Shown in pieces: positions 14,268 to 59,400 of a DNA stretch of 64,000 nt (position 1 is the first letter of the stretch; every line of letters starts with the position of its first letter). The notes under the pieces were generated by a model. It worked only from the letters and a program-made list of their open reading frames with translations, searched no databases and was not told the origin of the DNA. This stretch comes from Escherichia coli (lineage in GTDB: Bacteria; Pseudomonadota; Gammaproteobacteria; Enterobacterales; Enterobacteriaceae). Both the position numbers and the translations under genes were made by a program. The stretch lies in assembly GCF_024223415.1 (NCBI RefSeq), contig NZ_CP100500.1; one strand, 5' to 3'.

Positions 14268-14278
14268 ATTGCTTATTG

Positions 14279-16349: not shown

Positions 16350-16400
16350 CTGATTAAACAGGGAAGTTAAACATTAAAATTGAATGGATTTTCAATGAAC

Positions 16401-16436
<36 letters not shown>

Positions 16437-18251: not shown

Positions 18252-19910
<1,659 letters not shown>

Positions 19911-36924: not shown

Positions 36925-37665
36925 TCAGAAGTTATAAGTCACACCAAGCATGATGTCATGACTTTTAACATCAACTTCTGACTTATATTTATCGCCCCAC
37001 TCGTCCTTGTAACTCACACTGCTGTCACCTGCATCAAGATAGCGATAGCTGAGGTCCAGAGCGATATCCGGGGTTACGTCATAGCGGACACCCGCGCCAA
37101 GGTTCCATGCGAAGTTGTCAGCAGAGCCTGAACGTGACAACGATTCGCGACCACTGCTTCCGTACTCATAATCCCAGGTACTGATACCGGTTGTTTTCTG
37201 GTGAATTCTGGCGTAGCCAATCCCTGCAGATATCCAAGGTGTGAATGCGCTGTCATTCCGGAAGTCATAGTACGCATTCAGCATTAGTGTGTTGACTGAC
37301 ACCTCATTCTTCAGGTCATCACGCCAGTAACCACCTGACCAACTGTCTTTATCTACGTTATACTTCGAATCAGCTTTTCCACGAGCGTAAAACTCCAGTT
37401 CTGTACGAACCGGAATACTGAACTGCGGATAAAAATCATAACCAGCCGCGATACCACCACTGAATACCGTATCATGGTCATCGCCGCCTTTATACTTTGA
37501 CGTTTCTTCCTCATCTCCTGACAGGAAACGCTGGTCTGAAAGTGACACCACAGAGGTACCGGCTTTACCGGTCAGATAAAAACCGCTTTTACCTTCCTCA
37601 GCACCTGCATTTGCTGCAAATACACAGGCTGCGGCCACCACTGAAACAGCAAAAACCTTTTTCAT
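36925..37665 (-). CDS. Outer-membrane beta-barrel protein, MipA/OmpV-like
   Basis: 246 aa; signal peptide MKKVFAVSVVAAACVFAANA, alternating amphipathic strands, C-terminal ...GVTYNF with terminal Phe; resembles MipA family but unverified. Confidence 0.5.
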   Translation of the reverse strand: MKKVFAVSVVAAACVFAANAGAEEGKSGFYLTGKAGTSVVSLSDQRFLSGDEEETSKYKGGDDHDTVFSGGIAAGYDFYPQFSIPVRTELEFYARGKADSKYNVDKDSWSGGYWRDDLKNEVSVNTLMLNAYYDFRNDSAFTPWISAGIGYARIHQKTTGISTWDYEYGSSGRESLSRSGSADNFAWNLGAGVRYDVTPDIALDLSYRYLDAGDSSVSYKDEWGDKYKSEVDVKSHDIMLGVTYNF

Positions 37666-38152: not shown

Positions 38153-38524
38153 TTATGCCGCTTCTTTTTCTGGATTCAGATAAACTGCCTGAATGAGTTC
38201 CCAGTCACGCAACTGTTTGCTCCAGCGCTCAGGATGACGCTTGCGAGCTTCGCGATAAACTTTTTTTCTGGCTTCCAGTATTTGTGCATCAATTCCGCGA
38301 TGGCGTTCATCCGGAGTAACATACTTAATACCGCTGTGCTTGTGTTCCAGGTTGTACCATTGCGTGAACTTGCTTAACCAACTTCTGGCTTCATCTATGG
38401 TTCGAAAACCATTCTCCGGCCACCATGAACAATACTTAATCGTCCGGAAGAGCGATTCGGAATAAAGAAGTGTTACTGGCAGTTCTTTCATCGCATCAGT
38501 GAAAACCAGCAGGGCACTGCTCAC
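38153..38524 (-). pseudogene. Transposase C-terminal fragment (DDE integrase core, IS3/IS481-like)
   Basis: 123-aa ORF with ...WYNLEHKHSGIKYVTPDERHRG... typical of transposase C-termini; lacks N-terminal domain. Confidence 0.45.
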
Positions 38525-38942
38525 CAGAGCAACACAGGAAAGTGAACCCGAACAAAAGTTCCTGTACCATTTTCTCCCAGCAGACGTGAGGCTTGTTCCA
38601 GTGACTCTGGTATACGTCCCAGCCGGACATCAAGTGCGCCGATGGCTATTGCCTGAAATCGCATCGTACAGCAAATCACCAACAGGACACCGACAGACAT
38701 TAAAGGTAACCCCCTGTAATCCAGTAGTTCCGACAGCCAGCGGTCATTTAGGGAGTCAGAAAACCAATCGCCAGAATCGTGCCCGGAAAGGCATAACCCA
38801 GCGACGCCACTCTCATCACACCGCGCCTGAACAGTGGCATAGCGTTGAGGAATTCCGGGCATTCCAGACTACGAGCAGACTGACAAAAATTACGACAAAG
38901 CGTTGAAGGAAGCCAGCGCGCGGACTGACAGGACTTTACCAT
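38521..38942 (-). pseudogene. ABC-transporter permease fragment (ThiP/FbpB-like), frameshifted
   Basis: Two overlapping short ORFs containing permease-like segments LGYAFPGTILAIGFLTP and ...IPESLEQASRLLGENGTGTFVRVHFPVL; far too short for an intact permease. Confidence 0.35.
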
Positions 38943-38991
38943 AAAAACACAGGCTAACCGCGCCTGCGTTTTTAATGACGGATAAACAGAA

Positions 38992-40971
38992 TCAGGTGCC
39001 GATTATGCCGCCGTCGGCTTTTACGATAACGACAGTTGAGGAGCGCGGACGACCAGCCTTATCGCCGTCAGGCCAGCTTGATACTGCCGTCGGATGCTGC
39101 GGATCGCTAAGCCCTTCGCTTGGCTCGCCAGGGTGCTGGATGTTAATAAACAGCGTCCGGTTATCCGGAGTGAACGCGATGCCGGTGATTTCGCAGCCGC
39201 GCGGGCCGGTCAGGAAGCGGCGGAACTCATTGGTACCGGGGATCGTCGCCACCATCTGGTTGTTGCCCATGCCTTTGTAATCTTTAATATTTATGGTTGA
39301 TGACGACACGTCGGTCTGGATCCATAGCACGCCGCGGTGATCGAAGCTCAGGCCATCGGCGCTGCCGAATTCCGCACCCTTCATGCTGCCTTTGGTTTCC
39401 GGTTTGTCTGTATCGGTGCGACCGCCCATCACAAGAATATCCCAGGCAAACTGCAGCGCGGTCGGGTCACCGTTATGCTCCAACCAGTGAATGATGTGGC
39501 CGTAAACGTTTTTGGCGCGCGGGTTGGCCGCATCCACTGGCGCTTTTCCTTCCGTACCGCGATCGCTGTTGTTGGTGAGCGTGCAGTAAACGCTGCCGGC
39601 GTGATATGGATCGACCGCAATCCACTCCGGGCGGTCCATTTTAGTGGCCCCCACGGCGTCTGCCGCCAGACGGGTTTTAATCAACAGGTCGCCCTGGTTT
39701 TCAAACCCTTTACTGGCGTCGAGCCCATTTTGTCCGAACACCAGCGGTAGCCACTCGCCTTTGCCGTCGTCGTTAAATTTCGCCACGTACAGAGTGCCTT
39801 TTTCCAGCAGGTGCATGTTGGCTTTGCGATCCTGCGGGTTGAATTTTCCTTCCGAGACAAATTTATATATGTATTCGAATTTCTGGTCATCGCCCATATA
39901 GACCACAACGCGGTTATCCGGGGCAATTGTCACCGCTGCGCCTTCGTGTTTGATGCGACCAAGCGCGGTGTGCTTGCGCGGCACTGAATGCGGATCGTAT
40001 GGATCGATTTCCACCACCCAGCCGAAGCGGTTCGGCTCGTTCGGCGTGGCGTCGACGCTGAACCTTTTATCCACTTCGTTCCAGCGGTAAGAGTCGTCGC
40101 TCCCGCTGATACCGTAACGTTTTTCCAGCGGGTTCATCTCTGCTTTTTTTACGAAAATATCGGACCAGTTCTCTTCACACGTCAGATAGGTGCCCCACGG
40201 CGTAAATCCGTTGGCACAGTTCTGCATGGTGCCGAGAATGATTTCGCCTTTCGGATCGTCAACTGTTTGCATCAGTGGGTTATGCAGCGCCGGACCGGTG
40301 ATTTTCATCGGCGTGTTAACGGTGATGCGGCGTGCGAACGATGACGGGCGCACCACTTCCCAGCCCAGGGGCACTTTTTTTACTTCAATGACCGACACGC
40401 CCATCGCGTTCTGGCCTTTAAGAGCTTTATCGGCGCTCCAGTTGGCATCGCCATCTTTAAACAGTAGACCGTTATCGATGTATTCATGGTTTATGGCAAG
40501 CAGGCCGTGATCGGAGCTGTTCCCGCCCTGCGGCAGGCTAAACCACGCCATGCCGTCGTGGTGCATCCCGGCCTGCGCCGCCTGTTCTTCCGTGGTGTTG
40601 CTACCGTCGGTTTTAAAAACCGGCAGATTTCCGGCAATCCCGGTGGCGTCGCCCCATTTGTAGAAGGGCTTCGCGATGTATCCTTCCGGCACGATAACGG
40701 TATCTTCCGTGGAAACCGGCAGGCTGGTGAAACCGAGCGTCGTCGCTTTGCCGAGGTTACCGCTTGCTTTGGAGACCACTTTCGCCAGCGCGTTTTCCTG
40801 TTTCAGCAGAAATGGGAACGCTGCCGCGGCACCGGCGACCGTGCCTGCCTGTAACAGACGGCGGCGTGACAAATAGACTTCCGCCACCTGCGAAAACGCG
40901 CGGTTATCGCTCGGGTTACTGATTTCTTCACTATGCTCACGTTTGAATAAAGTTTTTAACGGTCTGCCCAT
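38992..40971 (-). CDS. Tat-exported PhoX-family alkaline phosphatase (DUF839-like)
   Basis: 659 aa; twin-arginine signal SRRRLLQAGTVAGAAAAFPFL; length and composition as recalled for PhoX family; not part of K-12 core. Confidence 0.6.
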   Translation of the reverse strand: MGRPLKTLFKREHSEEISNPSDNRAFSQVAEVYLSRRRLLQAGTVAGAAAAFPFLLKQENALAKVVSKASGNLGKATTLGFTSLPVSTEDTVIVPEGYIAKPFYKWGDATGIAGNLPVFKTDGSNTTEEQAAQAGMHHDGMAWFSLPQGGNSSDHGLLAINHEYIDNGLLFKDGDANWSADKALKGQNAMGVSVIEVKKVPLGWEVVRPSSFARRITVNTPMKITGPALHNPLMQTVDDPKGEIILGTMQNCANGFTPWGTYLTCEENWSDIFVKKAEMNPLEKRYGISGSDDSYRWNEVDKRFSVDATPNEPNRFGWVVEIDPYDPHSVPRKHTALGRIKHEGAAVTIAPDNRVVVYMGDDQKFEYIYKFVSEGKFNPQDRKANMHLLEKGTLYVAKFNDDGKGEWLPLVFGQNGLDASKGFENQGDLLIKTRLAADAVGATKMDRPEWIAVDPYHAGSVYCTLTNNSDRGTEGKAPVDAANPRAKNVYGHIIHWLEHNGDPTALQFAWDILVMGGRTDTDKPETKGSMKGAEFGSADGLSFDHRGVLWIQTDVSSSTINIKDYKGMGNNQMVATIPGTNEFRRFLTGPRGCEITGIAFTPDNRTLFINIQHPGEPSEGLSDPQHPTAVSSWPDGDKAGRPRSSTVVIVKADGGIIGT

Positions 40972-41393
40972 TGCGGTTTCCTTTCAAAAAATCGATTTCA
41001 AGGGGAATCATTTTTATGCACGTGAGTCTACGGAAAGATTGTTACGGAAATATAACAATTGTCATAAAAAACCGGCGATAAAATCATCTATGGTCGGGAC
41101 GCGGTTTCAGGTATGATGTGAGGCTAGAATTCTGAACGCTCTCTTTTGTTGAGCATATATGGACGTCCCGGGTGAGGCAAGTACTGGTTCGATGCGGTTT
41201 GCGACCATATATCCGGCGTCGTTAGTAGGTTCAATGACCTGCGCCATGATGTTATCCGGGCCCTATTTCCTAATCACTACACCGGTATTTGATTACCCAG
41301 GTCAACTTCAGACTGTTACAGGGGCGGTAGCCGTTATCTCATCAGTGAATGTAAACTCAGTTAAAAATATTTTCTATAACTTACTGTTTTTAT

Positions 41394-41603
41394 TTAATTC
41401 ATCACAACGGCCTTCTGCATATTAAAATCAATACTATCGCTCAAAACACGCCAGATGATTCTTGTCAGCTTGTTCGCCAGCGCACCAGTGGTTTTCAGGA
41501 ACCCTCGACGGGCTTCCATCCTTTGCAGACAAATACTCAGACTGTCAGTGAGCTTTTTCACACAGCGCATTACAGACTGAAATGGCACACTGAATTTGGT
41601 CAC
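41394..41603 (-). pseudogene. Transposase C-terminal fragment (IS110-family-like)
   Basis: 69-aa ORF ending ...ALANKLTRIIWRVLSD..., resembling IS110-family transposase C-termini. Confidence 0.3.
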
Positions 41604-41649
41604 CTGAACAGAGGTGATATGCTCACCTCAGAACAAGACTGGTGCCCTA

Positions 41650-42350
<701 letters not shown>

Positions 42351-42356
42351 CTAGCT

Positions 42357-42393
<37 letters not shown>

Positions 42394-42732
42394 TAATTAC
42401 ACTGTGGGTTGACGCCGGAAGAATCAGAGAACAGATACCGTTCTTACTGTAAAACGTGGCTAATATTAATTGAGCACTGCAGTGTTCAGAGCACAAAGAA
42501 GAAAAAAGATGTGTGCGAATGCCTGTAATGTGTTAAAAGAATGTTCCGCGTTTCCGGTACGCTTTTCGTAACTAACAATGCAGGGTGACGTAACGCTGGT
42601 TGTGCCGGAAACGCGTCCCTCCCCCTATCTTTCCTGTTTGGATTTGCCCCTATATTTCTGGATTATCCGACAAAACCGGCGTGAAGTATTACTCTCGTCG
42701 CCCAGCACCATAAGGATAACGCCCATAAAATC

Positions 42733-43098
42733 ATGAAACTTTTCTTCCAGATTGGATACAATCAGGCCGTATCCCGTATTACAGGCTTATCACGTGTGAC
42801 AGTCAGTCTCTGGGTGTGTTCAGGAACATTCCCTGAAATGTCAACCCGGCCTCCAGAGCGAGGACTTCTGGACCCATGGAGGGAGTGGTTAAAAGAGCAA
42901 CGAGAAAGTGGTAACTTCGGCGCGTGGCTGCAAGGATGGCAGCTGATGCTGCGGCTATATGTGAGGCAATCAGCAGTCGCTGGAATAATGGGGGTTGTCG
43001 AAAGTCATGTAAATCGACTAAAAATGCTGAAAGGCCAGATGTATGGTCGAGCCGGATTTGAACTACTCAGGCAGAGGGTCATGAGTCCACTGGCATGA
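42733..43098 (+). CDS. Hypothetical protein with AlpA-like HTH N-terminus
   Basis: 121-aa ORF; N-terminal ...AVSRITGLSRVTVSLWVCSGTFPE resembles AlpA-family phage/ICE regulators; weak. Confidence 0.3.
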   Translation: MKLFFQIGYNQAVSRITGLSRVTVSLWVCSGTFPEMSTRPPERGLLDPWREWLKEQRESGNFGAWLQGWQLMLRLYVRQSAVAGIMGVVESHVNRLKMLKGQMYGRAGFELLRQRVMSPLA

Positions 43099-43306
43099 AA
43101 ATCTCCATCCAGGTTGCGTAAGAGCCACTTTTCATCCGTCGTCGATATCTGGGATAGCCATAGTGAAATAAAAAGCTGTCTGAATTAAATTATTTTGCAC
43201 ATATATTTTAATCCTGCACTGAATTAAGAATGGGTAATCAGTGACCGCTTGGACGGTCACTTTTAAGAGAAGGCATTAACAGAGAATGGTAAACAGGCTC
43301 AATATA

Positions 43307-43757
43307 TTATGTTGTTGGCACTACAGATGAATGATGGGATGATATTTTCCAATCCTTTCCATCCCACTCATAAGCGAAACTATAGCGTGCTGAAACTTGT
43401 TTTTTATCTTCAAAAGTAAACGTGTAATTCCCTGTATCAAGAGCCATATTGCATCCAATGCGAATAGTTCTGAAGTTTATTTCTCCAACAGTTTTTTTTT
43501 CAAAAAATGCTCAAAATAGTCAACTCTTTCTGCATCTGTAATCCTAATTTTTTTTGATACTGTGGGCAGTAAGATCGCATCACTTAAATAGTTATCAGCA
43601 ACCTTCTTGGCATCACCTGTTTTTAATGATTCATTCCAGCGATCGAATAACCTTTCAATGTCTTTACTATCTACCCGAATACACTTAACATTATCTACGT
43701 CACTTGCCCACGACGCTCCAGAAAACAGACACAGAATTAAAATATTTATTTTTTCAT
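43307..43757 (-). pseudogene. Small secreted NTF2-like (SnoaL/DUF4440-like) protein gene interrupted at two homopolymer tracts
   Basis: AGGAGG then ATG at 43755-43757 followed by A6 and immediate stop; +1 frame encodes signal peptide KINILILCLFSGASWASD...; second shift at A9 tract (plus-strand T9, 43492-43500); restoring A7 and A10 gives about 150-aa ORF ending ...WDGKDWKISSHHSSVVPTT. Confidence 0.5.
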
Positions 43758-43991
43758 AACTCCTCCTGATCAGCCTGAAACTTTTTTAAAGTTTAATCAT
43801 ATTAATACAGTGCAACTATTTGATAGTAAAAACGATGTTCTCTATTTTGTTAATAGATACTTCCTATTGTGTATATATTATGAGATTATTAAGAATAATA
43901 CTCTCTGGGTCGTAGAGACAGGGTATAAGTCACAGGCTGGTGTGGTTCGGATGTTCTTGCCCCCTCAATATCAGACTGCTATTGTATCTTA

Positions 43992-44370
43992 AGTTAACGT
44001 TATCCGCTGACGTCGATATTCCCGTGGTGAGAGATAACCTAACGCACTATGCGGATGGTTTTCATTGTAATGCTCGAACGCCTCTGCAAGGTTATGCAAT
44101 GCCGTTATTACATTCAGTTTCGGCATGAACGCGATGTAGTCTTCATTCACGTTTTCACGAACCTTTCTGCCATTCTATTGCTCTGAGGGCTACTGACTGC
44201 CGTCGTGCAGGGCTCCAGATTCAACTCTCTGGCGAATTGCCGTGTTTCATGAGCCGTATAAGCCGAACCGTTATCCGTCCGCCACTGGATTGCTCGTTCC
44301 GGTCCTTTATCGCCAAAGCGTTTTTCTATCGCTCCTAACATCACATCCTGCACTGTCGGCTTTATCGTAA
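43992..44370 (-). pseudogene. Diverged IS2-group 3' fragment (partial InsD-like orfB plus terminal repeat)
   Basis: About 80% nucleotide similarity to the IS2 3' region at 30120-30520; encodes ...[45 protein letters not shown] similar to InsD. Confidence 0.7.
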
Positions 44371-44655
44371 CCTCCCGTACTGGTCACGGGCAGACTGTTC
44401 ATCATGTTAAACCCAGCCGCTGTCAGATCATGCACCGGCCGGATGGCGGGCTGACCTGCCCCGCCGCGCTGCTGCCCGCCAATCCATTTCTTACCTTCCT
44501 TCCCGGTGGCCTGACGTCCGGCCTCGTCCCCTTTCACCGCATCACCGTCACCGCTGTTCACCACCTTCTTGTACTCTTCCAGCATCGCTGGCCTGCGTCC
44601 ATTTGCTGCGATCAGAAAAGTCCATCATCCGTTTTGCCATGTTCTGGCAGTTCAG

Positions 44656-45117
44656 TTACGCCTTGTCGAAAGCCACATTCGCCTGCAGCACACCGTTGGT
44701 GATCATGTCGTACAGGCCGGGGTTGGCACGCTGTATCACCATCGCCGGCAGACTGGCAGCGGCGCCGGTCGCCCCCTGAATCACATCCCCCATCAGATTT
44801 TTAAAGCCGTCGGTCAATCCGTTAAGATGATTACCCACCGTGGTCTTCAGGTCAAAGTTGCCGCACATCAGATCGCTGCTCCAGCCCAGGTCCATACCCA
44901 GCTTCTGCATGTTGCTGCGCGTGGCCAACTGTGAGATCACCGAGCCGCCACCCAGCGTATAGAACAGTTTGTCGGATACGGCGCCATCCACGGATTTCCC
45001 GTAACCGAACGTGCTGTCATTCAGTTTCGGCAGGGAAAGAAGATCAGCCATCGCCGGAATACTGCAGTACAGCATCACACTCAGTGCCACCATACCTGTT
45101 TTCATCTTCATCATCAT
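44656..45117 (-). pseudogene. Conjugative-element transfer protein fragment (TraH-like?), 3'-truncated
   Basis: 153-aa ORF with signal peptide MMMKMKTGMVALSVMLYCSIPAMA; reading frame breaks downstream and abuts the IS2-like fragment; family assignment tentative. Confidence 0.3.
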
Positions 45118-45123
45118 GGTTCC

Positions 45124-46098
45124 TTAAAAATTCGTACTGCCAAGGAATCGCTGCCCGCGCTTTTCGAAGCAGCTGTAAGGCTGCCACAGTGCAAAGGCTG
45201 CATTACCGTTCTCCGCTGCCTGGTGTTCACCATCCGGGAAAACGGCACAGGAACGCGACACTGACGGCGTCAGTCGCTGCCATTTGTGATTGCGGGTGCC
45301 GGTGTTTTCCTCCACCGCCTCCGGGGGCCACTAGCCGTCACGTTTCACGCCCTTAACCTCCCTGTAGACATGCGACTCCCCCATCCGCGTGATAATGTCG
45401 GCCACCCGCTGAGCCCCCACCGCCGCGGCCCGGTCATCATCGGTCTGCATCACAAAACCACTCCGGTGATAAACGCTCCCCCACATGTTTTTATCGGCCT
45501 AGCTGCCAATCTCGCGTTTGCCGGGAACCTGTGCCTCTGGATACAGGGATTCAGGTAATCCCGTTCGCTAGACGATGCTGTCCAGGGTACTGAGGAAATA
45601 GGCCATGGCCGGTGTCACCGGTGAATCACAGCTGAATCCGGGTACCATCCCGCCGATAAGCTGTGTGGCCGGATGACCCAGCGCATCTGCGTATTTGAAA
45701 CGAATGGCTGAACGGCGCTTCCCCTGTATTTTCATATCCGCCGGATTTCCCCCGCCGGCACTCAGCCCGGACAGGCCGTCAGTGATGGCATTCTCCGGGC
45801 CACCTGCGGTCCGGCTGACCAGCGACATCTCTTTCCAGGGATTACCACCCGGTGCCGTATAGGTGGAAATAACCACTTCCGGGATGAAATGTGTCACCTT
45901 CACGGAAATTCTGACCGTACAGCCAGACGCGCTGCAGTAAAGCCAGTAACAAATCCCGCTGACACGCCAGCTGATATAGTCCGGTGCCGCAGTACTGGCG
46001 ATAATGCTGGCGGTGTTCAGTGATACAGACGCCAGGGGCAGTGATGCCACACTCAGTAACAGCACGCCGGTACGCAGACGACATTTCAGGGACATCAT
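45124..46098 (-). pseudogene. Conjugative-element transfer protein (TraU-like?) split by frameshifts/stops
   Basis: 176-aa N-terminal ORF with signal peptide and Cys-rich segment (ICYWLYCSASGC), continued in other frames to about 45124; total about TraU size. Confidence 0.3.
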
Positions 46099-46211
46099 GG
46101 CTGCACTCCTCCCTCAGCACGGATTTTCCCGGCCATCACCACATCCATGGTGCCGTAAACCACCTCACTGTCATCAAACACCACGGCAGGGTATTTCTTC
46201 ACGCCCAGCGA

Positions 46212-46490
46212 CTAGGCATGTGCCACATCGCGGTAATGACCGGCCAGTTCCGCCTGCATCGTCTGCCATTCGGGAGACTTCATACGTACCCTGACCACCG
46301 ATTCAGCCTCACCCGCATCAGCAGGCAACAGGCCCCAAAAGCGGCTCTGAAGCTGCTCAGGCGCATCCAGCAGAACCACCCTGACACCATCAGGAGGATT
46401 AACGGGAAGATGCTGAGAATCGGTATAAATTGTTGTGCCGGCAGACGCTGCCAGCGGCAGGAAAAACAGGGAACAGAAAATCCGGTACAT
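46212..46490 (-). CDS. Small secreted protein of conjugative-element remnant
   Basis: 92-aa ORF with signal peptide MYRIFCSLFFLPLAASA; upstream of the TraU-like fragment on same strand. Confidence 0.3.
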   Translation of the reverse strand: MYRIFCSLFFLPLAASAGTTIYTDSQHLPVNPPDGVRVVLLDAPEQLQSRFWGLLPADAGEAESVVRVRMKSPEWQTMQAELAGHYRDVAHA

Positions 46491-46686
46491 CGCACGCTGT
46501 CAGTCAGATATTATCTGACTGACAGCGTGCGAAGAAAGCGCTCATTTATCAGCAATAAATTAAAAACGGGATTAAAAAATTACGGTGGGATCCGGGGAAG
46601 TGTATCTGCCAAGCATAACAGACAGTCTGTGATTATACCCGGCCTTTCACAAAGCCGGGGAACTGATTCATACCAAGTGGTGATTT

Positions 46687-46938
46687 TCAACAATAAGTAT
46701 AATGAGGTTGTCCCGGCACCGGTGGCAGTGGTTCGAGATAGACGTCATCAACAAAAACACAGGGGAATTTTTCAACTGCACATCCAGCACGCTCAGACAT
46801 TACCTTCAGACTGATACCATGTTTCTCAGCATCAATAAAGAGGACATCTGCCCCTGTTTCATCCCGGAGATTTGTCGCATGATGCATGATCCGGTGTACT
46901 GAAGGACATGTTTTGTAACCAAAAACACATATACGCAT
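46687..46938 (-). CDS. Small thioredoxin-fold/glutaredoxin-like protein (monothiol CPS motif)
   Basis: ORF trimmed to Met (MRICVFGYKTCPSVHRIMHH...), 83 aa; beta-alpha-beta start with CP motif; weak. Confidence 0.3.
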   Translation of the reverse strand: MRICVFGYKTCPSVHRIMHHATNLRDETGADVLFIDAEKHGISLKVMSERAGCAVEKFPCVFVDDVYLEPLPPVPGQPHYTYC

Positions 46939-47424
46939 GTTGCACCTCCTGATCACTGGTTGACGCCGATAATAAAACAATAATGTGAGCGTAAAAAATG
47001 CACCTCATACCACATTTCTGTAAAAGGCTCTGGCTATCACTGCAAAAAGCAAAATCTTAATTCCAGCATCACTTGTTACTCTCATTCCGTCACTTATATT
47101 TACCCACATGGCGATGTATTTAATTACTGCCCATAAGAATAAAAGCCGCTGGCGGATTATTTCTTTATTACCCGGATGCGGTCACAAGCCCACACATCGT
47201 CAACTACCTGCCGGTAATATTAACTGTCAGAAGAACGCATACATCCGGATGTTTACAGAGTCGCGCGCCTGGTCACAGGTGACAACAGAAGTATGCCATA
47301 CTAAAGGAGTAAACGGCGGGTCACTGGTGATCAAACACCTGCATCGTGTGTTGCTGCCACTGCCCTCAGGTGACAGAGGCAGCATCTTTACGTATTATAA
47401 TGCGTTATATCGGGTTTGTTGTTA

Positions 47425-49512
47425 TCAGAACTGATAGTTCAGCGACATCCAGTAATTTCTCTCAGGTATCACATAACCCGTTGTCGATGCCCCCGTCTGG
47501 AAGTAATCACCCGCATAAAGCGTACCACTGCCGGCACGATACAGACTTACGTCACTGTAATCCTTGTTAAGCACATTATTCACCGCTGCATTCAGCATCA
47601 GTGCATCCGTCACTTTCCACGACATGCCCGCATCCAGTACCGTCCAGGCTTTCAGATATTCACCTTTCTCATCATACACTTTCTTCTGTACAGCTGAGAG
47701 TGACGAATAATTCTGGGTGAAACGTGGCGTTTTCCCGCGGTAACGGGCACCCAGCCATGATGTCACCTCTTCAGTAATCTGCCAGTTCAGTTTCGCATTC
47801 ACCATATGCTCAGGGGTGTAACTCAGTGGTGCACCTTTATTATCCCCATCCCGTTGTTCACTCTGCGTCCAGGTATAATTCAGAGACAGAGTCACATCCT
47901 CTGACAACAGAGGCAGTGTGCCGGCAAATTCCACGCCCTGAGTCCTGGCCTTTCCGCTGTTTGTGTAGCTGCGGGTATTATCATCAATGGAATAAGATAC
48001 GATCTTGTTGGAGAATTCTGTCATAAAGCCCGTGATATTGGCGTTCAGACCGGCATGATTATCGTAATACACGCCCGCTTCATAACTGACACTCTCCTCC
48101 GGCTTCAGGTCCGGGTTACCGAGAAGATTCGTACGCCCCTGACCGGACACACCGCTGATCCCCTTATGTAACTGCCCCATGCTGGGCGCCTTATATCCCG
48201 TGGTCACCCCACCTTTCAGCGTCCACGCATCAGTCACATCCCAGACCATATATGCCCGGGGACTGAAGTGTCCTCCGAACACCTCATAGCGTTCATAGCG
48301 GCTACCCGCAGTCAGTGCAAATGCATCCGTGATATACCACTCATCCTCAACAAATGCCGACCAGCTTTTCTGACGGAAGGTTTCACCAGTACTGGCGAGA
48401 ACAACCCCGTCTTTCATGGAGGAGTTCTGATACTCACCACCGACGGTAACCTTGTGTGATTCCCCCAGAGGTGCAAACAGTAATGAGCTCAGGATAAGAT
48501 TCGACTCCTTAAGCTCCCTCGGCTGGCCGGCAAGCCCCCATTTATCACGCTGCAGTACGCTACGTACAAGCTGACGGCCTTTATTTTCCGTCTCATTCCA
48601 GTTCAGGGATGACTTCCAGGCTCCGAAGGTGAATGTATGATCATAGCCTGCTGAAATTTTATTACGCTCATAGCGCAGGGTGCGATCATAACCGCCCGTC
48701 AGACTGCCCAGCTGGCCATCTCGGTTATCATAACGCTGCCGGGCGATATCCATATCAATCCAGAGTACATCCTTGTCCGTCGCTTTCCAGTCAAGACGAC
48801 CACCTGCATTATAATTCTGTGATTCCGTGGGATAAGGGATACGCGTAGCTGAGGTGTCGCTCAGTGATGTGACCGATGAGCCCTGACGCTGCTGTGTGCT
48901 GCCACGTACCTGAAGGCTGAGTGAATCATCCACAAGGGGACCGCTGCTCCAGAAATTAAACTGGCTGCTGTTCCCCCATTTGTTACTTTCCTGCAGGTTC
49001 AGCCCGGCATTAACCGAAGAGCGCCATTTGTCTGCATTCTTTTTGGTGATGATATTCACCACGCCCCCCATGGCATCAGAGCCGTACAGAGTGGACATGG
49101 GGCCCCTGATAATCTCAATACGTTCGATGGCGGCCAGAGGTGGCATAAAACCCGTATTCATGGCAGCATAACCGTTTGGGGTTACGTCACTGCTCCCGCC
49201 CTGACGGACACCATCGATCAGTATCAGCGTATAACTGGCAGGCATTCCGCGGATGCTGATTTCCAGCCCACCTGTTTTACCCGTACCGCTTTCAACATCC
49301 ACCCCCTCTACGGATCTCAGTGCCTCCCCCAGATCATGATACTGGCTGGATCGCAAATCCTCCTGGCTGATCACTGAAACACTCGCAGCTGCACTGGTTA
49401 ATTTTTTTTCATAGCCAGACGCCGTGACTACCATCACATCTTCCGCAGCCATACTGCTGACTGAAAACCCGAGACAAGGGATGGCTACTGAAGCCAGAGT
49501 GGTTACTCGCAT
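47425..49512 (-). CDS. iha: TonB-dependent outer-membrane siderophore receptor/adhesin, IrgA homologue (Iha-like)
   Basis: 695 aa; signal peptide, TonB box region (DVMVVTAS), plug motif IERIEIIRGPMSTLYGSDAMGGVVNIITKK, C-terminal ...WMSLNYQF; closely resembles recalled IrgA/Iha. Confidence 0.7.
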   Translation of the reverse strand: MRVTTLASVAIPCLGFSVSSMAAEDVMVVTASGYEKKLTSAAASVSVISQEDLRSSQYHDLGEALRSVEGVDVESGTGKTGGLEISIRGMPASYTLILIDGVRQGGSSDVTPNGYAAMNTGFMPPLAAIERIEIIRGPMSTLYGSDAMGGVVNIITKKNADKWRSSVNAGLNLQESNKWGNSSQFNFWSSGPLVDDSLSLQVRGSTQQRQGSSVTSLSDTSATRIPYPTESQNYNAGGRLDWKATDKDVLWIDMDIARQRYDNRDGQLGSLTGGYDRTLRYERNKISAGYDHTFTFGAWKSSLNWNETENKGRQLVRSVLQRDKWGLAGQPRELKESNLILSSLLFAPLGESHKVTVGGEYQNSSMKDGVVLASTGETFRQKSWSAFVEDEWYITDAFALTAGSRYERYEVFGGHFSPRAYMVWDVTDAWTLKGGVTTGYKAPSMGQLHKGISGVSGQGRTNLLGNPDLKPEESVSYEAGVYYDNHAGLNANITGFMTEFSNKIVSYSIDDNTRSYTNSGKARTQGVEFAGTLPLLSEDVTLSLNYTWTQSEQRDGDNKGAPLSYTPEHMVNAKLNWQITEEVTSWLGARYRGKTPRFTQNYSSLSAVQKKVYDEKGEYLKAWTVLDAGMSWKVTDALMLNAAVNNVLNKDYSDVSLYRAGSGTLYAGDYFQTGASTTGYVIPERNYWMSLNYQF

Positions 49513-49561
49513 ATCTTCTCTCCGATTATATTAATCAGAGAGAAGATAAACAAACGCAAGA

Positions 49562-49580
49562 GATAATGAGAATGATTTGC
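49562..49580. promoter_or_regulatory. Fur box upstream of iha-like receptor
   Basis: gataatgagaatgatttgc, 15/19 match to Fur consensus GATAATGATAATCATTATC, about 50 bp upstream of the receptor start. Confidence 0.65.
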
Positions 49581-49824
49581 TTTTGGTTTTTACATAAAAA
49601 AGTAAAAAATTACAAAATATTACATAAGGTTCTACTATACCCCGAATTTCAGTTGAGGACGTTCTTTTCTCTAGGGGAAAGTAACGGATAGCAATCGTTG
49701 ACGATCCATATCGGATTTTTGCACTATGGGTATTTATCCAATCTTTATCAGTTTCTTGTCCTTGGATATGTTAATCATACACTATCGGATATTTCGTACA
49801 TCAGACAGGTGAATATAATTAATA

Positions 49825-50109
49825 ATGAGGAGTTTTATGGACAATAGAACAATTACTCTGCAGGAATTACTCGAGTACATGTCAATGCTTCGAGACGACA
49901 TGAATGCTCTCACGGTTGCATTTTCATATCTGGCTTCATCGCTTCCTAAGGAACAGATGATACAAATACTGGCATTCATTCATTTTGAATCAAATAATTC
50001 CAGATGGTCTTCAGAACAGCAGAAATCTTTCAAATGGCTAGCATCACTACTGGAGGGCTGTTATACAGTTCACACAAACATTTTTGATATACCATCAAAG
50101 AACCACTAG
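49825..50109 (+). CDS. Hypothetical small protein (AT-rich, island cargo)
   Basis: 94-aa ORF with ATG start, divergent from iha-like gene; no recognisable motif. Confidence 0.3.
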   Translation: MRSFMDNRTITLQELLEYMSMLRDDMNALTVAFSYLASSLPKEQMIQILAFIHFESNNSRWSSEQQKSFKWLASLLEGCYTVHTNIFDIPSKNH

Positions 50110-50432
50110 TACATTATGATACATTCCCTCTGAAATATATTTCTACTTTGAGCGCCTCTGACTTTATGAGGCGCTTTGTCCAGCAAACCAAACATACTCG
50201 CTGGAAACAGAGTAAAGTATTATTATCCCCGATACATCTATATTTTACAACAGCGCATCCATATATTAATTAACGATGCAGTTAAGTTCCCCATTCTACC
50301 CAATTTACTGTTTTTGTTGTTTGAAAGAAGACTCTCATTAAGTGAGAGCCATCTGTAAGTATCCCGCATAATCGCTCCATTCATATTTAGAGATCATCCG
50401 GAATAATCAATCTGATAACGAAGAAAATCGCT

Positions 50433-50558
50433 ATGCGTAAAGCCCGTATTACTGAGTATTAGATCATCGCTGTAATTAAATCGGTTGAAACCGGACGAAC
50501 AATTAAAGATGTTTGTCGGGAAGCCGGTATTTCTGAAGCCACTTACTACATCTATTGA
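50433..50558 (+). pseudogene. IS3-family orfA fragment with in-frame stops
   Basis: MRKARITEY*IIAVIKSVETGRTIKDVCREAGISEATYY - HTH region typical of IS3-family OrfA. Confidence 0.5.
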
Positions 50559-50773
50559 CTACCTCAGTTTTGCAAGCACTGATTCTGGTTTTGGATTGTT
50601 GCTTACATCTATCCGGCATCAGGAAAACCTGTGCCCAAATAGGGAATCCACACACAATCGCCTCTACAACTGGACGACCTCTGAGGCCAGTACAAAAATC
50701 AGGTTCCGATTGTGCAGGTGCAACCCGTCACCATTTCTCAGTACGCTGCAACTTTTGCTGAAAGAGATTAACT

Positions 50774-51250
50774 TCACACTGCCTGATATTCTGTATCATT
50801 TATCAGCATCGACCAGATTATTCTCGCGTATTTGTTAGCAATCTCCACAGTAGTTTTATTAAATTCGCGACTCTCCTTTAACTGCTTAACCCACTGATTT
50901 AGGTATACATCATTATTATTCGTAGCAACTCTAACGACAGCACGGACGCCATGAATAAAAAGTGTTTGCAGATGCTTGTCGCCTTTTTTCGTTATATTCA
51001 TGAGAACTTACCTGCAGCAACTCTAGTGCAGGCATGGAAGCAGACCAAGCCATGCAGCACAGTGACGATCATTCTTAAATTCAGTGCCTTTGCCAATAAT
51101 AACAGCAACAACGCTCGTGACAATTTCAGGACCAATGCCTTTAGCTTTTGCAATACGCTGACAGCATTCAGATTACCTGGACAGGTCTCTATTTATTTAT
51201 CAAAAAAGTTTATACTACGACCGAGATCGTTAAAGAGATCATCTAAATAG
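50774..51250 (-). pseudogene. IS110-family transposase C-terminal fragment with internal stop
   Basis: ...AKAKGIGPEIVTSVVAVIIGKGTEFKNDRHCAAWLGLLP... then ...KKGDKHLQTLFIHGVRAVVRV...ANKYARIIWSMLIND. Confidence 0.55.
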
Positions 51251-52380
51251 CTGCGCCTAATACCACTACACTTTTGCCAGCCCATGTTTGCCTCCGGGGA
51301 ACGGGCTGATGGTTTCCATAAAATGGCGAATTTTTTTCAACAGTTGCCACATTGAGCGGCACTGATGATTACGCGTTATTGTGTCGTGAAGTGCCTGCCA
51401 TAGCCGTTCAACATGATTCACCCATGGCAAGTAAACCGGCTGATAAATGACCCTGAACTTCGGGTTCTCCTTCAACCAGCGCTGTGTTTCCCGGCTTTTG
51501 TGGATAATGTAGTTGTCCACGATCAGTGTGATGGTTTTCACCCGAAGGTATGTCGCTTTAAGCCGCTTCAGCAGGCTGATGAACAGCGCCGAACTTTTGC
51601 TGTTGCCGCCCACATAGCTGACTTTACCTGTCCCGCTGTGCAGCGCTCCGGCCAGATCATATTTTTCATTCTGTCCCGGCGTGACCACCCGTTTTTGCTG
51701 TCCGCGCAGTTGCCAGTCCGCACCGATTTTGGGATTAAGATGGATATCCACTTCATCTTCATAAAAGACCGGATGCTCTGTGCTGCATTCGTCCAGTGCT
51801 TTATGGATTGCTGCCATCTTTTCATCTTTATGCGGGTCACGGATACGCAGAGTTGGCGCAGCCCTTCGCCACACAATCCCCGCAGACGGCAACCAGCGGC
51901 GAACGGTTCCGGCATTTAACTGGCAATCGGTTATCTCATTGATTTTTATTGCCAGCAGTTCTGTACTCCAGCGTGAACGCTGGTAGCCAAAGTCGCCGGG
52001 AGAATGTTTTACCAGCTCACGTAACAGTGTGCAGATATGCTCAAACGACCAGAGACGGGCTCGCCCGGCAGGTAATGATTTCAGTCCCTCAACACCCGAC
52101 TGCGTGAACCAGTTAATCCAACATCCAACAGAGGAACGGGCGCAGCAGAGCGTTCTGGCAACGTCGCTGACACGGTCGCCCCGGTGCAGCATCAGCATGG
52201 CAGTCAGTCTGCGGGCATAATTTTTATCGTGTGTTTTATGGATGGCTTTCTGCATCAGGCGTCGTTCGTCACGGGAAATTGGTGCTATGATCGGCATTGC
52301 TCAGTCCGGTTGGTGATTTGTTTTGATTTGGCGATTGATCAGATCGCACAATCCAGGCTGAGCTCCCTCAAAGTGATCTA
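51230..52380 (-). mobile_element. IS630 copy (boundaries approximate)
   Basis: Contains intact 343-aa transposase matching recalled IS630; element is about 1.15 kb; exact ends and TA duplication not resolved. Confidence 0.7.
51266..52297 (-). CDS. IS630 transposase
   Basis: 343 aa MPIIAPISRDERRLMQKAIHKTHDKNYARRL...HGLAKV. Confidence 0.9.
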   Translation of the reverse strand: MPIIAPISRDERRLMQKAIHKTHDKNYARRLTAMLMLHRGDRVSDVARTLCCARSSVGCWINWFTQSGVEGLKSLPAGRARLWSFEHICTLLRELVKHSPGDFGYQRSRWSTELLAIKINEITDCQLNAGTVRRWLPSAGIVWRRAAPTLRIRDPHKDEKMAAIHKALDECSTEHPVFYEDEVDIHLNPKIGADWQLRGQQKRVVTPGQNEKYDLAGALHSGTGKVSYVGGNSKSSALFISLLKRLKATYLRVKTITLIVDNYIIHKSRETQRWLKENPKFRVIYQPVYLPWVNHVERLWQALHDTITRNHQCRSMWQLLKKIRHFMETISPFPGGKHGLAKV

Positions 52381-52639
52381 CTATTCCGCGCAGCTATTTA
52401 GTTCCGCTATCGTTCTGCACATACAAGCTCTTAACTCGTTTATGCATCCTCAAGGCTCAGCAGAATAGCTGTCAGCGCCAATGATATAAGACAGTAATGG
52501 GGATGCGGACGATTTCCTGGACTCTCAGGAGATGAAACATGTTTACTGAAGAAGAAAAAATCCGCGCCATTGAGCTTTATTTCAAATATGTGACCCGTCC
52601 TGAATAGCGTTGACACGTTCCTACTTAAATCCGGAGAAC

Positions 52640-53870
52640 GTAATGATGACTTAGCTCAAACGCACCCAACGTGATTATCCTCTATCCTTTAAAATAGCTG
52701 TTGTTGAGCAGGTTGAAAAAGGCGAGATGACTTATAAACAGGCCCAGCAGCGGTATGGCATTCAGGGGCGCTCCACCGTTCTTGTCTGGTTACGTAAATA
52801 TCCTGGACTTCCTGAGCTGGTGAAGAGGAAACTGCCTGTGACTCAGACAACTATCCCGCTCACACCCGAGCAAAGAATCAGGGAACTTGAAACGTAGCTT
52901 GAGCTGGCGAACCAGAAAGCTACGTTTTTTGAGTCAGTTATCAATGTCCTGAAAAATGATTACGGGGTGAGTATCGTAAAAAGCGGCCCGGCAAGTCCTC
53001 GCGCAAAGTCCGGTCCCCAAAATAACTGTGACGCGTGCAGTCTGTTCCTGGGACACAGCAGACAGGCATGGTATCAGGACAATGCAAGGCGCAGAAAACG
53101 GCAGGAACATCATGCTCAGGTTCTTGATTTTGTTGCCCGTGTCAGATGTCGTCAGCCCCGAATCGGTGCGCGTAAGCTGCACTATCTGCTGAACACTCAG
53201 GCCGATAAAAGGCTGAATATCGGGCGAGACCGCCTGTTTAACCTGCCCGATGAATACCGACTCCTGGTGCCAGTAAAACGGTCATATCACAAAACTACCA
53301 ACAGCCATCATCGCTTCTACCGACATCCAAACCTGCTTAAACCAGGCCCTGAACAGGTTACTGCTCTTGAACCAGAACAGGTCCGGGTCGCCGATATTAC
53401 TTACCTTCCACTGCGCAATAGTTCGGCCTATCTGAGTCTGGTCACCGATGCCTGCTCCAGAAAAATTATGGGCTACCATGTTGGGGAAAACCTGCAGACA
53501 GAAAATGTGGTAAAAGCGTTCAGACAGGTGCTGAAGCTGAGAAAAACGACGAGTCCCCTGGTGCATCATTCTGGCAGGGGCTGCAATACTGTTCAGCGCT
53601 CTATCAGTCAGTTCATGAAAGAAATGAAATAACCTGTTCAATGACTGATGGTTATGACTGCTACCAGCATTGGCTGAGTGAATAAATGGTACCCTGAAAA
53701 ATGAGTTTTTACTCTCGCGTCCTGCAGACCTGGCTCAGGCCCGGGAAATGGTCCAAGAGTCCGTGGCAATTTATAACCATGAGCGGCCACACCTGGCTCT
53801 GAAATACAAAACGCCCTATGACGTTCATCAGGCGTTTTACAGACAGAAAAGTGTCAACTTATACCAAGAC
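52640..53870 (+). pseudogene. IS3-family element, orfA/orfB broken by stops and frameshifts
   Basis: Segments ...RDYPLSFKIAVVEQVEKGEMTYKQAQQRYGIQGRSTVLVWLRKY..., ...RIGARKLHYLL..., ...VAIYNHERPHLALKYKTPYDVHQAF... Confidence 0.6.
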
Positions 53871-53876
53871 TAGTCA

Positions 53877-54493
53877 ATGGTAAGAAGCTGGCTCCCGTCG
53901 TACGCGAACTGGGCTACCCTTCGAAAAGAAATCTGCGGCGTTGGATCCGTTCATAGGAATCAGGTGGCGGAGCAAAAGAATCCATTCGCCATAAGCCCCG
54001 TTACACAGATGAGCAAAAACAAGTTGCCGTTGAACATTATCTTAACCACGGCTGCTGCCTAGCGTTTACCAGTAGAACTCTGGGTTATCCCTGTACCGAT
54101 GTGCTCGCTCGCTGGGTTAATGAACGTTACCCCGGCAGACGACGTATATTTACCAGTAAGACCAGTCCGGTTGCGCCCTTTGAACCAGAAGTCAAACGTC
54201 AGGCTGTCATGGCATTCTGTACACGACAAATATCAGCCAGTGAAATCTCTAGGCGTATTGGTGTCAGTCGTGCGGTATTGTATAAATGGAAAGATGAAAT
54301 TATCGGCAACAGTGCTTACCAGACTATGCGTAAACATAACGAACCTTCCCTGGAGGCAGAACGCGATGCGTTGCGGGAGGAAGTCGCCCGACTGAATCAG
54401 GAAATACGCCGCCGGCAGATGGAACTGGATATTCTGAAAAAAGCGGAGGAAATCATAAAAAATCTATGGTCACCCCCGTTTTTGCTACACTGA
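53877..54493 (+). pseudogene. IS3-family orfA (HTH + leucine-zipper), one internal stop, truncated at slippery site
   Basis: ...VAPFEPEVKRQAVMAFCTRQISASEISRRIGVSRAVLYKWKDEI...EVARLNQEIRRRQMELDILKKAEEII then non-IS sequence. Confidence 0.6.
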
Positions 54494-54895
54494 TTTTTGA
54501 TTAATGGTGGGCTTGCTTAAATCTATCCGGCGTCTCTGTGGACAAGGAGACCCGCGCCTCGATGAGTTCCGCACCTGATAATCCTAAAAAGACCCTCGGC
54601 TTCAGTGAGCCATTTTTTCTGTCAGGTTTTTAATCAGGTCTATTTGCCGTTCATGTCATCAATAATCAGTCTTCGCAAAACCAGACAGGTAACTTGTATC
54701 TTATTTTTTAAAATAAGCTAATTGAGTTTTGTCAGTATCTATATCAGGCCTGATATTCTTTGTGCAGAGCAGTGATTGCCCAGGCTATTCGGGCCAGTTT
54801 ATTTGCCAGAGCGCAGGCGACAATATTTGAATGCTTATTGTCGAGTTGCTTTTGAACCCATTCAGCAACTCTGCCCTATTGATGCTCCAGCCGCA

Positions 54896-55740
54896 TCATG
54901 AACGAGCGGGCGTACAGAACAAGTAACCGACTCGTTTGCTGATCCCCAGCAGCATTGATTTACCACCGGTACTGTATTGTCGGGGAACAAGTCCTGTGGA
55001 TGCTGCAAAATCCCTACTGCACGAAAATTGTTTACCATCACCAAGCTGGGATGATAGCAGGCTGGCCGTCATCGGCCCAACACCGGGGATTGTCATGATT
55101 CGTTGCACAGTAGCGTCAGCTTTGATTGACTGGTTTAACTCTGATTCCAGTTCTGTTATTTGCTCAATACGATAAAGATAGTGAGCATGTAATTTCATCA
55201 GCAAGCGACTCAGATATTCAGGTATTTCGTGTTCAGCTAACGCCAGAGACAACCATTTTATTGCGGCATCCCCTGTCGGCAGTCTGATTCCAAATTCCAG
55301 CAAGAAACCGTGGATCTGGTTGGTTTTTTTCACCTTATCTCTGATGAGCGATTCTCTGACCCGGTGTAATGCCCTCATTGCCTGCTGGGTTTCTGTTCTG
55401 GGCTGGACAAAACGCATTGATGGTCGTGAAGCCGCTTTGCATATGGCTTCTGCATCAATAAAATCATTCTTATTACCTTTGACAAACGGACGCACGAATT
55501 ACGGAGAGATAAGTTTTTCTTCATGACCGATGTCGCTGATACGCCGGGCCATAAAATGCGTACCAGCGCAGGCTTCCATAACAACTACTGAGGATGGACA
55601 TGTTGCCAGAAACTGCATCAGCTTCGTACGCGTAAACTTTTTACGCAAAAGCGCATTGCCAGATTTATCTTGACAATGAATATGGAAAGAATGTTTACCG
55701 AGATCGATACCAATAAGCGCAACGTTTTACATGATGGTGC
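54896..55740 (-). pseudogene. IS110-family transposase (N-terminal and central parts), frameshifted and 3'-truncated; inserted between orfA and orfB of an IS3-family element
   Basis: 199-aa ORF with ...MTIPGVGPMTASLLSSQLGDGKQFSCSRDFAASTGLVPRQYSTGGKSMLLGISKR... plus upstream N-terminal piece in another frame. Confidence 0.6.
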
Positions 55741-57980: not shown

Positions 57981-58140
57981 AAAATGCATGGAATTAAAAC
58001 GGGGCATATTTATATATGAATAACACAACTATATCGCTAAGGTAAAGGTGTATCCAAACGGAAAATACAGCACTAACAGCATATATTCATCCAAATTAAT
58101 AAAATATGACCGAGAACATAGAATATTAAACATTTTTAAA

Positions 58141-59400
58141 TTATGCTTTTCTCGCTAACGCTTCTATATCCGAAAAATACTCTTTAATTCCCTCTAGGAT
58201 AGATTCTGCCACTTGTTGTTGGAATCTTGCCGTTTTCAGTTTGCGCTCTTCCTCAACGTTACTGATAAACGCCGTTTCGACCAGAATGGAGGGAATATCA
58301 GGTGCTTTCAGCACGGCAAACCCGGCCTGTTCAACCTGATTTTTATGCAGCTTGTTGATTTTACCGAGCTTATTCAGCACCGCTTTACCCAACTTCAGGC
58401 TGTCGGCAATGGTCAGAGACTGCACCATATCGAACATGGTGTGGTCGACATAGCGGTCACCGCTTTTGCTCACGCCGCCAATCAAGTCCGAGGCGTTCTG
58501 GGTTTGTGCCAGATATTTTGCCGCAGTACTTGTCGCGCCTTTGGTCGAAAGCGCAAACACGGAAGAACCGCTCGGCTGGCGACTGGTAAAGGCATCAGCA
58601 TGGATAGAAACAAAAAGGTCAGCACGTTGTTTCTGTGCTTTTGCTACACGCACTTGCAACGGAATGAAGATGTCTTCATTGCGCGTCATGTACACCTTCA
58701 TATTACCCTCTTTTTCGATCAGAGAGCGCAGACGGCGAGCTATTTGCAATACCACGTCTTTTTCGCGTGTTTTGTATTTCCCCACCGCACCGGGGTCTTC
58801 GCCACCGTGGCCGGGGTCAAGCATAATGACAATCGGACGATCACGCCCTGCTTTACCCGGTTGTGGACCACTTTGTGCTGGCGGCACCTGCTTTTCGAGG
58901 TCGCCTTTGTTGTAATCCTCCAGCAGCGCCAGCAGCGGGTCCTGCATATCCTGTGCATTGGCCGGATAGAGGTCCATCACCAGACGCTCTTTAAACCCGG
59001 CGACCGGCGCAAGGGCAAACAGCTGCGGTTTTACGTTTTGCTTTAATTCAAAAACCATGCGTACGGTTTGCGGGTCAAATTGCCCGACGCGCGCCGACTT
59101 GATGAACGGGTCGTCTGCACGAATTTGTGCCGCCATCCCCTTGAGTACCGAGTTCAGGTTTACATCTTCGATATCCACCACCACACGTTCAGGGTTACTT
59201 AACGCGAACTGCTTATATTGCAGCTGACGATTTGATTCTACCGTCACGCGGGTGTAGCTGGACGCAGGCCAGACGCGTACCGCCACGACCTGGCTGACCG
59301 CAGCCAGGCTGACCTGACTTACGCTCAATAGCCACATGGCGCCCGCACCTTGCAGTAAACGACGACGGCTGATTACATAATTATAGTTAGATACCAGCAT
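58141..59400 (-). CDS. amiC: AmiC-family N-acetylmuramoyl-L-alanine amidase (Tat signal, AMIN domain, Amidase_3 domain)
   Basis: 419 aa; twin-arginine motif [24 protein letters not shown]; catalytic-domain segments [18 protein letters not shown] and SIHADAF; close to recalled AmiC but N-terminal residues differ; ATG at 59398-59400. Confidence 0.75.

Follow-up and report, generated by a model that had tools for sequence, protein, structure and literature searches.

A 64,000-nucleotide stretch of Escherichia coli DNA (NCBI RefSeq assembly GCF_024223415.1, contig NZ_CP100500.1), referred to throughout as the window, carries iha, a gene already known from E. coli, in intact form at positions 47425-49512 of its minus strand. 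With a probability of roughly 0.88, we regard this as a functional copy encoding a Fur-repressed catecholate receptor, which belongs to an old and rare lineage of the gene and was delivered by an integrative and conjugative element (ICE) that has since decayed.

Identity of the receptor

The open reading frame (ORF) begins with ATG, spans 2,088 nt, specifies 695 amino acid residues plus the stop codon, and contains no internal stops. The identical protein is present in RefSeq (WP_001266790.1) under the name "bifunctional siderophore receptor/adhesin Iha," and window positions 47000-50200 have 100% matches in several complete genomes of E. coli, where WP_001266790.1 is annotated as iha. The Iha equivalog model NF010012 (NCBIfam; PRK13486) returned 1538.7 bits against a cutoff of 924, with residues 1-695 aligned to model positions 1-696. 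The runner-up among the NCBIfam models is that for CfrA (483.8 bits; cutoff 1200), while the IreA and CirA models gave 398.5 (cutoff 1197) and 330.7 bits (cutoff 745), respectively. Assignment to the IreA, CirA, CfrA, or FepA family was ruled out, since every one of these model scores falls under its cutoff.

The protein combines a TonB box near the N-terminus, a plug domain, a 22-stranded β-barrel, and a C-terminal aromatic residue, the set of characters by which TonB-dependent transporters are recognized. The Pfam match to the receptor barrel (PF00593) covers residues 221-647 (E 6.2e-65), and the sequence terminates in …NYQF, with the aromatic residue usual for such receptors. The TonB box, EDVMVVTA, resembles the xTxVVTA box of CirA, BtuB, and FepA. 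Across alignments of 14 to 131 homologues Val29 and Ala31 are invariant or nearly so, and Phe695 is also conserved.

In comparison with the classical Iha of O157:H7 strain EDL933 and of uropathogenic E. coli (UPEC; CFT073/UCB34), the architecture is alike, the lengths being 695 residues here and 696 there, and the amino acid identities are 90.4% and 90.2%; the sole indel is one residue in the signal peptide. With CirA, FepA, PfeA, and PirA the protein has in common the TonB-dependent mechanism of a plug and a 22-strand barrel, yet only 24-30% identity; it scores under the NCBIfam cutoffs of the CirA and FepA families, and an adhesin role is not attributed to CirA, FepA, PfeA, or PirA. The IreA and IrgA types are iron-regulated TonB-dependent receptors of pathogens that fall into the same broad clade, and Tarr and colleagues are said to have named Iha in 2000 after its resemblance to IrgA of Vibrio cholerae.

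An earlier description made from the nucleotide sequence alone (the original prediction) had called the gene product an intact 695-residue TonB-dependent receptor closely resembling Iha and had proposed a check against IreA. The ORF, the Pfam plug and barrel, and the NF010012 match bear out the first part, and the check places the receptor below the IreA cutoff and above that of Iha. The phrase "closely resembling" is correct insofar as the gene is iha both by NF010012 and by its RefSeq name; it conceals, however, a deep side-branch at 90.4% amino acid and 86.5% nucleotide identity to the classical form.

The Fur box and the upstream region

The consensus GATAATGATAATCATTATC was scanned against both strands of the entire 64-kb window, amounting to about 128,000 positions. 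The only site with at least 15 of 19 matches lies at 49562-49580, where the plus-strand sequence is GATAATGAGAATGATTTGC; two other loci reached 14. This confirms the 15/19 Fur box of the original prediction, which had ended its feature at 49580, the end of the box. When the upstream 200 bp, with a G+C content of 32.5%, were shuffled 5,000 times, the best site reached at least 15 matches with a frequency of 0.0028. The core of the box, AAT(C/T)ATTCTCATTAT, is found at the same position in the alleles of O157 (strain 2159), 83972, NCTC86, and AR_0089, which score 13-14/19. The Citrobacter koseri orthologue, at 61% identity, possesses a 16/19 box at the equivalent place, with the same TGTAAAA motif ahead of it. 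By three tests, namely the best match in the window, improbability by chance, and phylogenetic conservation, the predicted box is judged to be real.

Upstream similarity to the classical iha loci and to the ICE of AR_0089 is confined to the last ~114 bp before the ATG, beyond which the flanking DNA has diverged. Within this homologous block the Fur-box core and the Shine-Dalgarno sequence, GGAGAG, occupy positions matching those of classical iha, and the latter is kept in all iha alleles aligned. The window allele is nearer to the Fur consensus than the classical one (15/19 versus 13/19). No Rfam match was obtained at the iha locus. For classical iha, PMC6313751 cites Rashid et al. 2006 as having reported that iron represses the gene through Fur; by analogy, the window allele would be repressed in the same manner.

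A divergent iha lineage

The window allele exhibits 86.5% nucleotide and 90.4% amino acid identity to O157:H7/UPEC iha, with the amino acid differences evenly spread along the protein. The synonymous divergence (dS) from O157 iha is 0.61 and the ratio of nonsynonymous to synonymous divergence (dN/dS) 0.083, values that point to an ancient divergence with strong purifying selection; the corresponding dN/dS in comparison with the AR_0089 allele is 0.14. A survey of 5,426 complete E. coli genomes gave 59 records with a match of at least 99% nucleotide identity, 20 with a relative at 90-95%, and 1,536 with a classical-type iha, the last being 80-90% (about 86.5%) identical to the window allele. 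The 59 are at least 99.9% identical across the full 2,088 nt, all are annotated as iha, and none is annotated as disrupted. Chickens or chicken meat were the source of about half of them and humans of about a quarter, and eight possess a second iha-like match on the same chromosome. The allele was absent from the plasmids of PLSDB, where the best match is 85%.

The published iha subtypes, EDL933, LAA, and pO113, are 91-94% identical to one another (PMC6920203); the window allele is farther from the classical gene than these are from each other. No description of its lineage was found in the literature, in which the published subtype scheme comprises EDL933, LAA, and pO113 only. The window gene belongs to a rare, old, and deep side-branch of iha.

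In a large protein collection, all relatives of at least 89% identity with a source name are labelled E. coli, and the next are from Citrobacter at 73%. A search for a donor species among the GTDB representatives yielded only C. koseri at 61% and a contig, probably contaminated, from a metagenome-assembled genome (MAG) named "Collinsella." This 4.4-kb contig of "Collinsella sp." (JAIJJM010000249.1) carries a classical-type iha whose product is 90% identical to the window Iha at the amino acid level; its upstream region matches 83972/NCTC86 over the aligned stretch and is one base off O157. It is almost certainly an E. coli contig mis-binned into an actinobacterial MAG.

Predicted fold and conservation of the surface

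The protein was modeled using AlphaFold2 (AF2) on an alignment of 131 sequences, a model based on 14 sequences having been discarded at a predicted local distance difference test score (pLDDT) of 58.6. The retained model, with a pLDDT of 91.3 and a predicted template modeling score (pTM) of 0.90, reveals a plug followed by 22 strands, in which long loops alternate with short turns. The best match by fold among solved structures in Foldseek is Cir (E 2e-52; template modeling [TM] score 0.81-0.89), while PirA, PfeA, and FepA have TM scores of about 0.78. CirA is the closest solved relative by sequence as well (E 7e-79).

The 67 differences between the window allele and O157 Iha were mapped onto this model. 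Substitutions affect 10 of 140 plug residues (7.1%), 35 of 303 residues in the barrel strands (11.6%), 8 of 40 in the periplasmic turns (20.0%), and 10 of 189 in the predicted extracellular loops (5.3%). Compared with the remainder of the mature protein, the loops are thus poor in substitutions (Fisher p 0.026), and L1, L3, L5, L8, L9, and L10 are identical between the two proteins; a like pattern is seen between the window and AR_0089 alleles. Hypervariable surface loops, as in many receptors exposed to phages or to immunity, had been expected, and the opposite was seen. On the predicted model the distribution is the reverse of what diversifying selection on the surface produces. The depletion suggests that function, including ligand and partner recognition, is probably unchanged and that the window Iha probably acts as the classical protein does.

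Origin on an integrative and conjugative element

The AR_0089 allele (WP_024210527.1), which is 95% identical to window iha at the amino acid level and 94.9% at the nucleotide level, sits in an intact-looking ICE of the SPI-7/PFGI-1 type. This element contains conjugation genes, an STY4534-type replication protein, TraD, many TIGR037xx genes, a conjugative ATPase, and an integrase. There, iha lies between the ATPase gene and a small hypothetical gene on one side and TIGR03757 and TIGR03756 on the other. The minus strand of the window displays the same order (iha, TIGR03757, TIGR03756), the latter two being pseudogenes at about 45124-46490 that are annotated with internal stops. The limits of the iha cassette are alike in both, from -114 to about 73 nt past the stop codon, as are the downstream neighbors. 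The window differs in lacking the upstream half of the ICE, in that its two remaining ICE genes carry stops, and in that these are separated from iha by a different spacer, of 780 bp. An iha-free version of the backbone is known from VTB97420v, in which only 373 bp lie between the hypothetical gene and TIGR03757. With iha embedded in an ICE backbone, and an empty-site backbone on record, the ICE debris beside window iha is no coincidence but what is left of the vehicle by which the gene arrived.

The right edge of the common segment is marked by a hairpin. The fold of 47330-47430 has a minimum free energy of -26.4 kcal/mol (z -2.1), and homology to AR_0089 stops at 47352; no canonical terminator was found on the iha strand in a consensus scan. 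Since the unit common to all contexts extends from 49626 to this hairpin, iha travels as a promoter-plus-gene cassette of ~2.3 kb. Both classical and window iha reside in a tRNA-associated genomic island beside debris of insertion sequences (IS). Instead of the tellurite-resistance island, PAI-CFT073-pheV, LAA, or pO113, however, it is an ICE backbone with which the window allele is linked. The features of the locus are collected in Table 1.

In AR_0089, the iha insert of ~2.4 kb is bracketed by a direct repeat of ~80 bp, 90% identical, which is derived from the 3′-end of the upstream hypothetical gene (positions 19787-19868 and 22191-22270 of the extracted ICE locus). The length of this repeat exceeds that of a transposon target duplication, which suggests that the insert was captured through recombination. 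Nothing in the AR_0089 ICE corresponds to the 780-bp spacer that separates iha from the ICE remnant in the window. This spacer includes an unannotated ORF of 97 residues (46687-46980, minus strand) with a weak match to the GrxA family of glutaredoxins (E 6e-8, below cutoff).

Table 1. Features of the iha locus, in window coordinates
Feature	Position	Strand	Basis
iha coding sequence, divergent "SMS-3-5/E41-type" allele	47425..49512	-	ORF list, RefSeq WP_001266790.1, NF010012
Predicted signal peptide, about residues 1-22/23	49444..49512	-	MRVTTLASVAIPCLGFSVSSMAA, hydrophobic, then A-x-A-like site; judged by eye; residues 1-22 have pLDDT below 50 (AF2)
TonB box EDVMVVTA, residues 24-31	49420..49443	-	Read from sequence, directly after MRVTTLASVAIPCLGFSVSSMAA
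Plug (cork) domain PF07715, residues 39-151	49060..49398	-	Pfam E 2.5e-27; confident AF2 region
22-stranded β-barrel, residues 164-695, 11 extracellular loops	47428..49023	-	PF00593 and AF2/DSSP strand pattern
Shine-Dalgarno sequence GGAGAG	49518..49523	-	Sequence reading; 5 nt ahead of ATG
Fur box, 15/19 to GATAATGATAATCATTATC, -50 to -68 from ATG	49562..49580	.	Scan of both window strands
Conserved 114-bp upstream block (promoter region, TGTAAAA motif, Fur box, Shine-Dalgarno sequence); left edge of iha cassette	49513..49626	-	Alignments
Hairpin, 41-73 nt past stop, no U tract; possible transcript end, right edge of shared cassette	47352..47384	-	RNA fold
SPI-7/PFGI-1-type ICE remnant: TIGR03757 and TIGR03756 pseudogenes, start of next ICE gene	44375..46571	-	95.1% identity to AR_0089 ICE

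Proposed function and alternative explanations

Classical Iha is described as a catecholate siderophore receptor taking up enterobactin and dihydroxybenzoylserine (DHBS) (Leveille 2006, as cited in PMC12200846; PMC6313751). It is also described, again in secondary sources, as an adhesin mediating epithelial adherence and as a urovirulence factor (Tarr 2000 and Johnson 2005, as cited in PMC7545054 and PMC6313751). By analogy, when iron is plentiful, Fe2+-Fur would occupy the box at -50 to -68 and shut off iha transcription; when iron is scarce, iha would be switched on and its product delivered to the outer membrane. There it would import ferric catecholates, that is, enterobactin and its breakdown products, with energy supplied by TonB-ExbBD through the TonB box. 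For the window Iha, what favors such uptake is the likeness in fold to Cir, PfeA, and FepA, together with the conserved loops. The exposed loops may also promote epithelial adherence, as reported for classical Iha. As to its history, the lineage would have entered E. coli as the 2.3-kb promoter-plus-gene cassette inside an SPI-7/PFGI-1-type ICE, which subsequently decayed within the pheV-tRNA island while purifying selection kept iha intact.

Several points weigh against this account. The integrity of the gene, its family, the fold, the Fur-box match with its conservation, the ICE origin, and purifying selection follow from the present analysis, but all of the functional claims, on Fur repression, catecholate specificity, TonB dependence, and adhesion, are carried over from a protein that is 90% identical, and the adhesin role of Iha goes back to few studies, here through secondary citations. 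The division into loops and turns derives from DSSP applied to the predicted model, together with the standard long-loop/short-turn topology of such transporters, and not from experimental coordinates. No sigma-70 promoter upstream of iha on the minus strand passed the consensus scan, and the box at 49562-49580 is equated with the experimentally mapped Fur site of classical iha on the grounds of position and conservation.

Given the distance from classical iha (86.5% nucleotide and 90.4% amino acid identity; dS 0.61), one might instead envisage a functionally diverged paralogue with another ligand, or another host or phage partner. The second iha-like match on the same chromosome in 8 of the 59 records would fit such an explanation, as would a vehicle (the ICE) and hosts (about half poultry) unlike those of the classical gene. 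Against it, the protein scores far over the Iha equivalog cutoff, six loops are identical and the loops as a whole are less substituted than the strands (5.3% versus 11.6%; Fisher p 0.026), no more than 10 of the 140 plug positions differ, and a dN/dS of 0.08 signifies conservation rather than adaptation; we consider functional divergence very unlikely.

The setting of the gene, surrounded by pseudogenes and IS fragments and without a promoter or canonical terminator in the consensus scan, could also be that of silent cargo, an intact-looking gene in a decaying island which is unexpressed or turning into a pseudogene. What speaks against this is the preservation of the full-length ORF, the Shine-Dalgarno sequence, the Fur box, and the entire 114-bp block, and the fact that 59 records are at least 99.9% identical with none annotated as disrupted, yet the neighboring ICE genes carry stops. 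With dN/dS at 0.08-0.14, silent cargo strikes us as highly improbable. We attach equally little credence to the idea that the Fur-box match is a by-product of AT-rich intergenic DNA and that iha is controlled by something else. It is true that the upstream 200 bp are just 32.5% G+C, that the match is imperfect at 15/19, and that the classical allele has 13/19 at the equivalent site. Nevertheless, no other match of at least 15/19 occurs in 128,000 positions and the shuffle frequency is 0.0028; the ATTCTCATTAT core is invariant though the flanks of the lineages have diverged, C. koseri has its 16/19 box, and classical iha is reported as Fur-repressed in PMC6313751. A functional, Fur-repressed iha of ICE origin is the reading that we retain.

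Genomic context

The annotation of the surroundings was taken from strain E41 (pig liver, China), which is a 100% match over window positions 30000-54900. In E41, the island starts at a tRNA-Phe gene downstream of yqgA; the tRNA at the equivalent position in strain SMS-3-5 is pheV (PMC11537424). From about 50460 onward, on the opposite side of iha from the ICE pseudogenes, lie broken transposase genes of the IS3, IS110, IS630, and IS66 types. The placement of iha between ICE debris and an IS graveyard, as originally proposed, is accordingly upheld by the TIGR03756/TIGR03757 pseudogenes on one flank and the broken IS genes on the other. Its portrayal as one of the few intact cargo genes fits the right-hand part of the island; the left part, however, retains intact genes for MkoC, a phosphoethanolamine transferase, an outer-membrane protein, and PhoX.

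The first of these (31620-35135, plus strand) encodes an intact 1171-residue protein annotated as "AAA domain-containing protein," which matches the PADLOC model MkoC with 1693.5 bits over residues 1-1169. PADLOC counts MkoC as one of the Mokosh anti-phage defence proteins, and the gene here is located in the same tRNA-Phe island as iha. It is followed on the minus strand by an intact gene for a 499-residue, CptA-like phosphoethanolamine transferase (35244-36743; 107.8 bits), far under all curated cutoffs including those of the MCR families, and by that for a 246-residue outer-membrane protein (36925-37665) resembling the rickettsial adhesin Adr (97.8 bits, below cutoff). In the genome of OkiPb01685, a truncated iha-like fragment adjoins a phosphoethanolamine transferase.

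A module of ~16.4 kb (window positions about 38457-54900) is common to most carriers of the allele at 99.8%. SMS-3-5 is not collinear with the window, as iha is separated there from the TIGR03757 pseudogene by an additional IS66 element of about 2.7 kb with tnpA, tnpB, and tnpC (positions 13910-16528 of the extracted SMS-3-5 locus); the insertion point corresponds to window positions about 46552-46563. On the other side, a gene for a 90-residue protein (49837-50109, plus strand) diverges from iha across a common intergenic region of 324 bp and lies outside the conserved cassette. Its product has a match in phrog_2411 (E 5.6e-34), a phage family without an assigned function, and none in NCBIfam. 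Further along, an intact copy of amiC (N-acetylmuramoyl-L-alanine amidase; about 58136-59395, minus strand) stands alone amid fragments of IS110, IS3, and IS21.

Detection and significance

In enterohemorrhagic (EHEC) and uropathogenic E. coli, Iha is recognized as a factor in virulence and fitness, and virulence typing routinely uses it as a marker. The classical polymerase chain reaction (PCR) primers for iha, which we take to be the pair IHA-f/IHA-r of Johnson et al. 2000, match perfectly in O157, 83972, and NCTC86, giving a product of 827 bp. Against the window allele the same two primers have three and two mismatches, respectively, the 3′-terminal base of each included. Taken with the 86.5% nucleotide identity, these mismatches suggest that carriers of the window allele may be scored iha-negative by PCR or by typing at a 90% identity threshold.

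A bolder proposal is that the window allele and its AR_0089-type sibling form a separate, ancient iha lineage which spreads on SPI-7/PFGI-1-type ICEs, perhaps beside classical iha in a few strains, and which PCR and typing perhaps miss systematically. We put this forward tentatively and regard it as rather unlikely as a whole. If true, the prevalence of iha would be under-counted in poultry-associated and in some human extraintestinal pathogenic E. coli (ExPEC); in a stronger version of the proposal, the two lineages may be functionally non-redundant.

Mechanistically, an intact and apparently Fur-controlled copy of iha brings no novelty, as the gene was known before, together with its family and its control by iron. 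The added value is descriptive and consists of a rare and old ICE-borne lineage, in which the surface and the promoter block are conserved and for which there is likely a gap in detection. The locus provides a clean example of a promoter-plus-gene cassette that has outlived its conjugative carrier.

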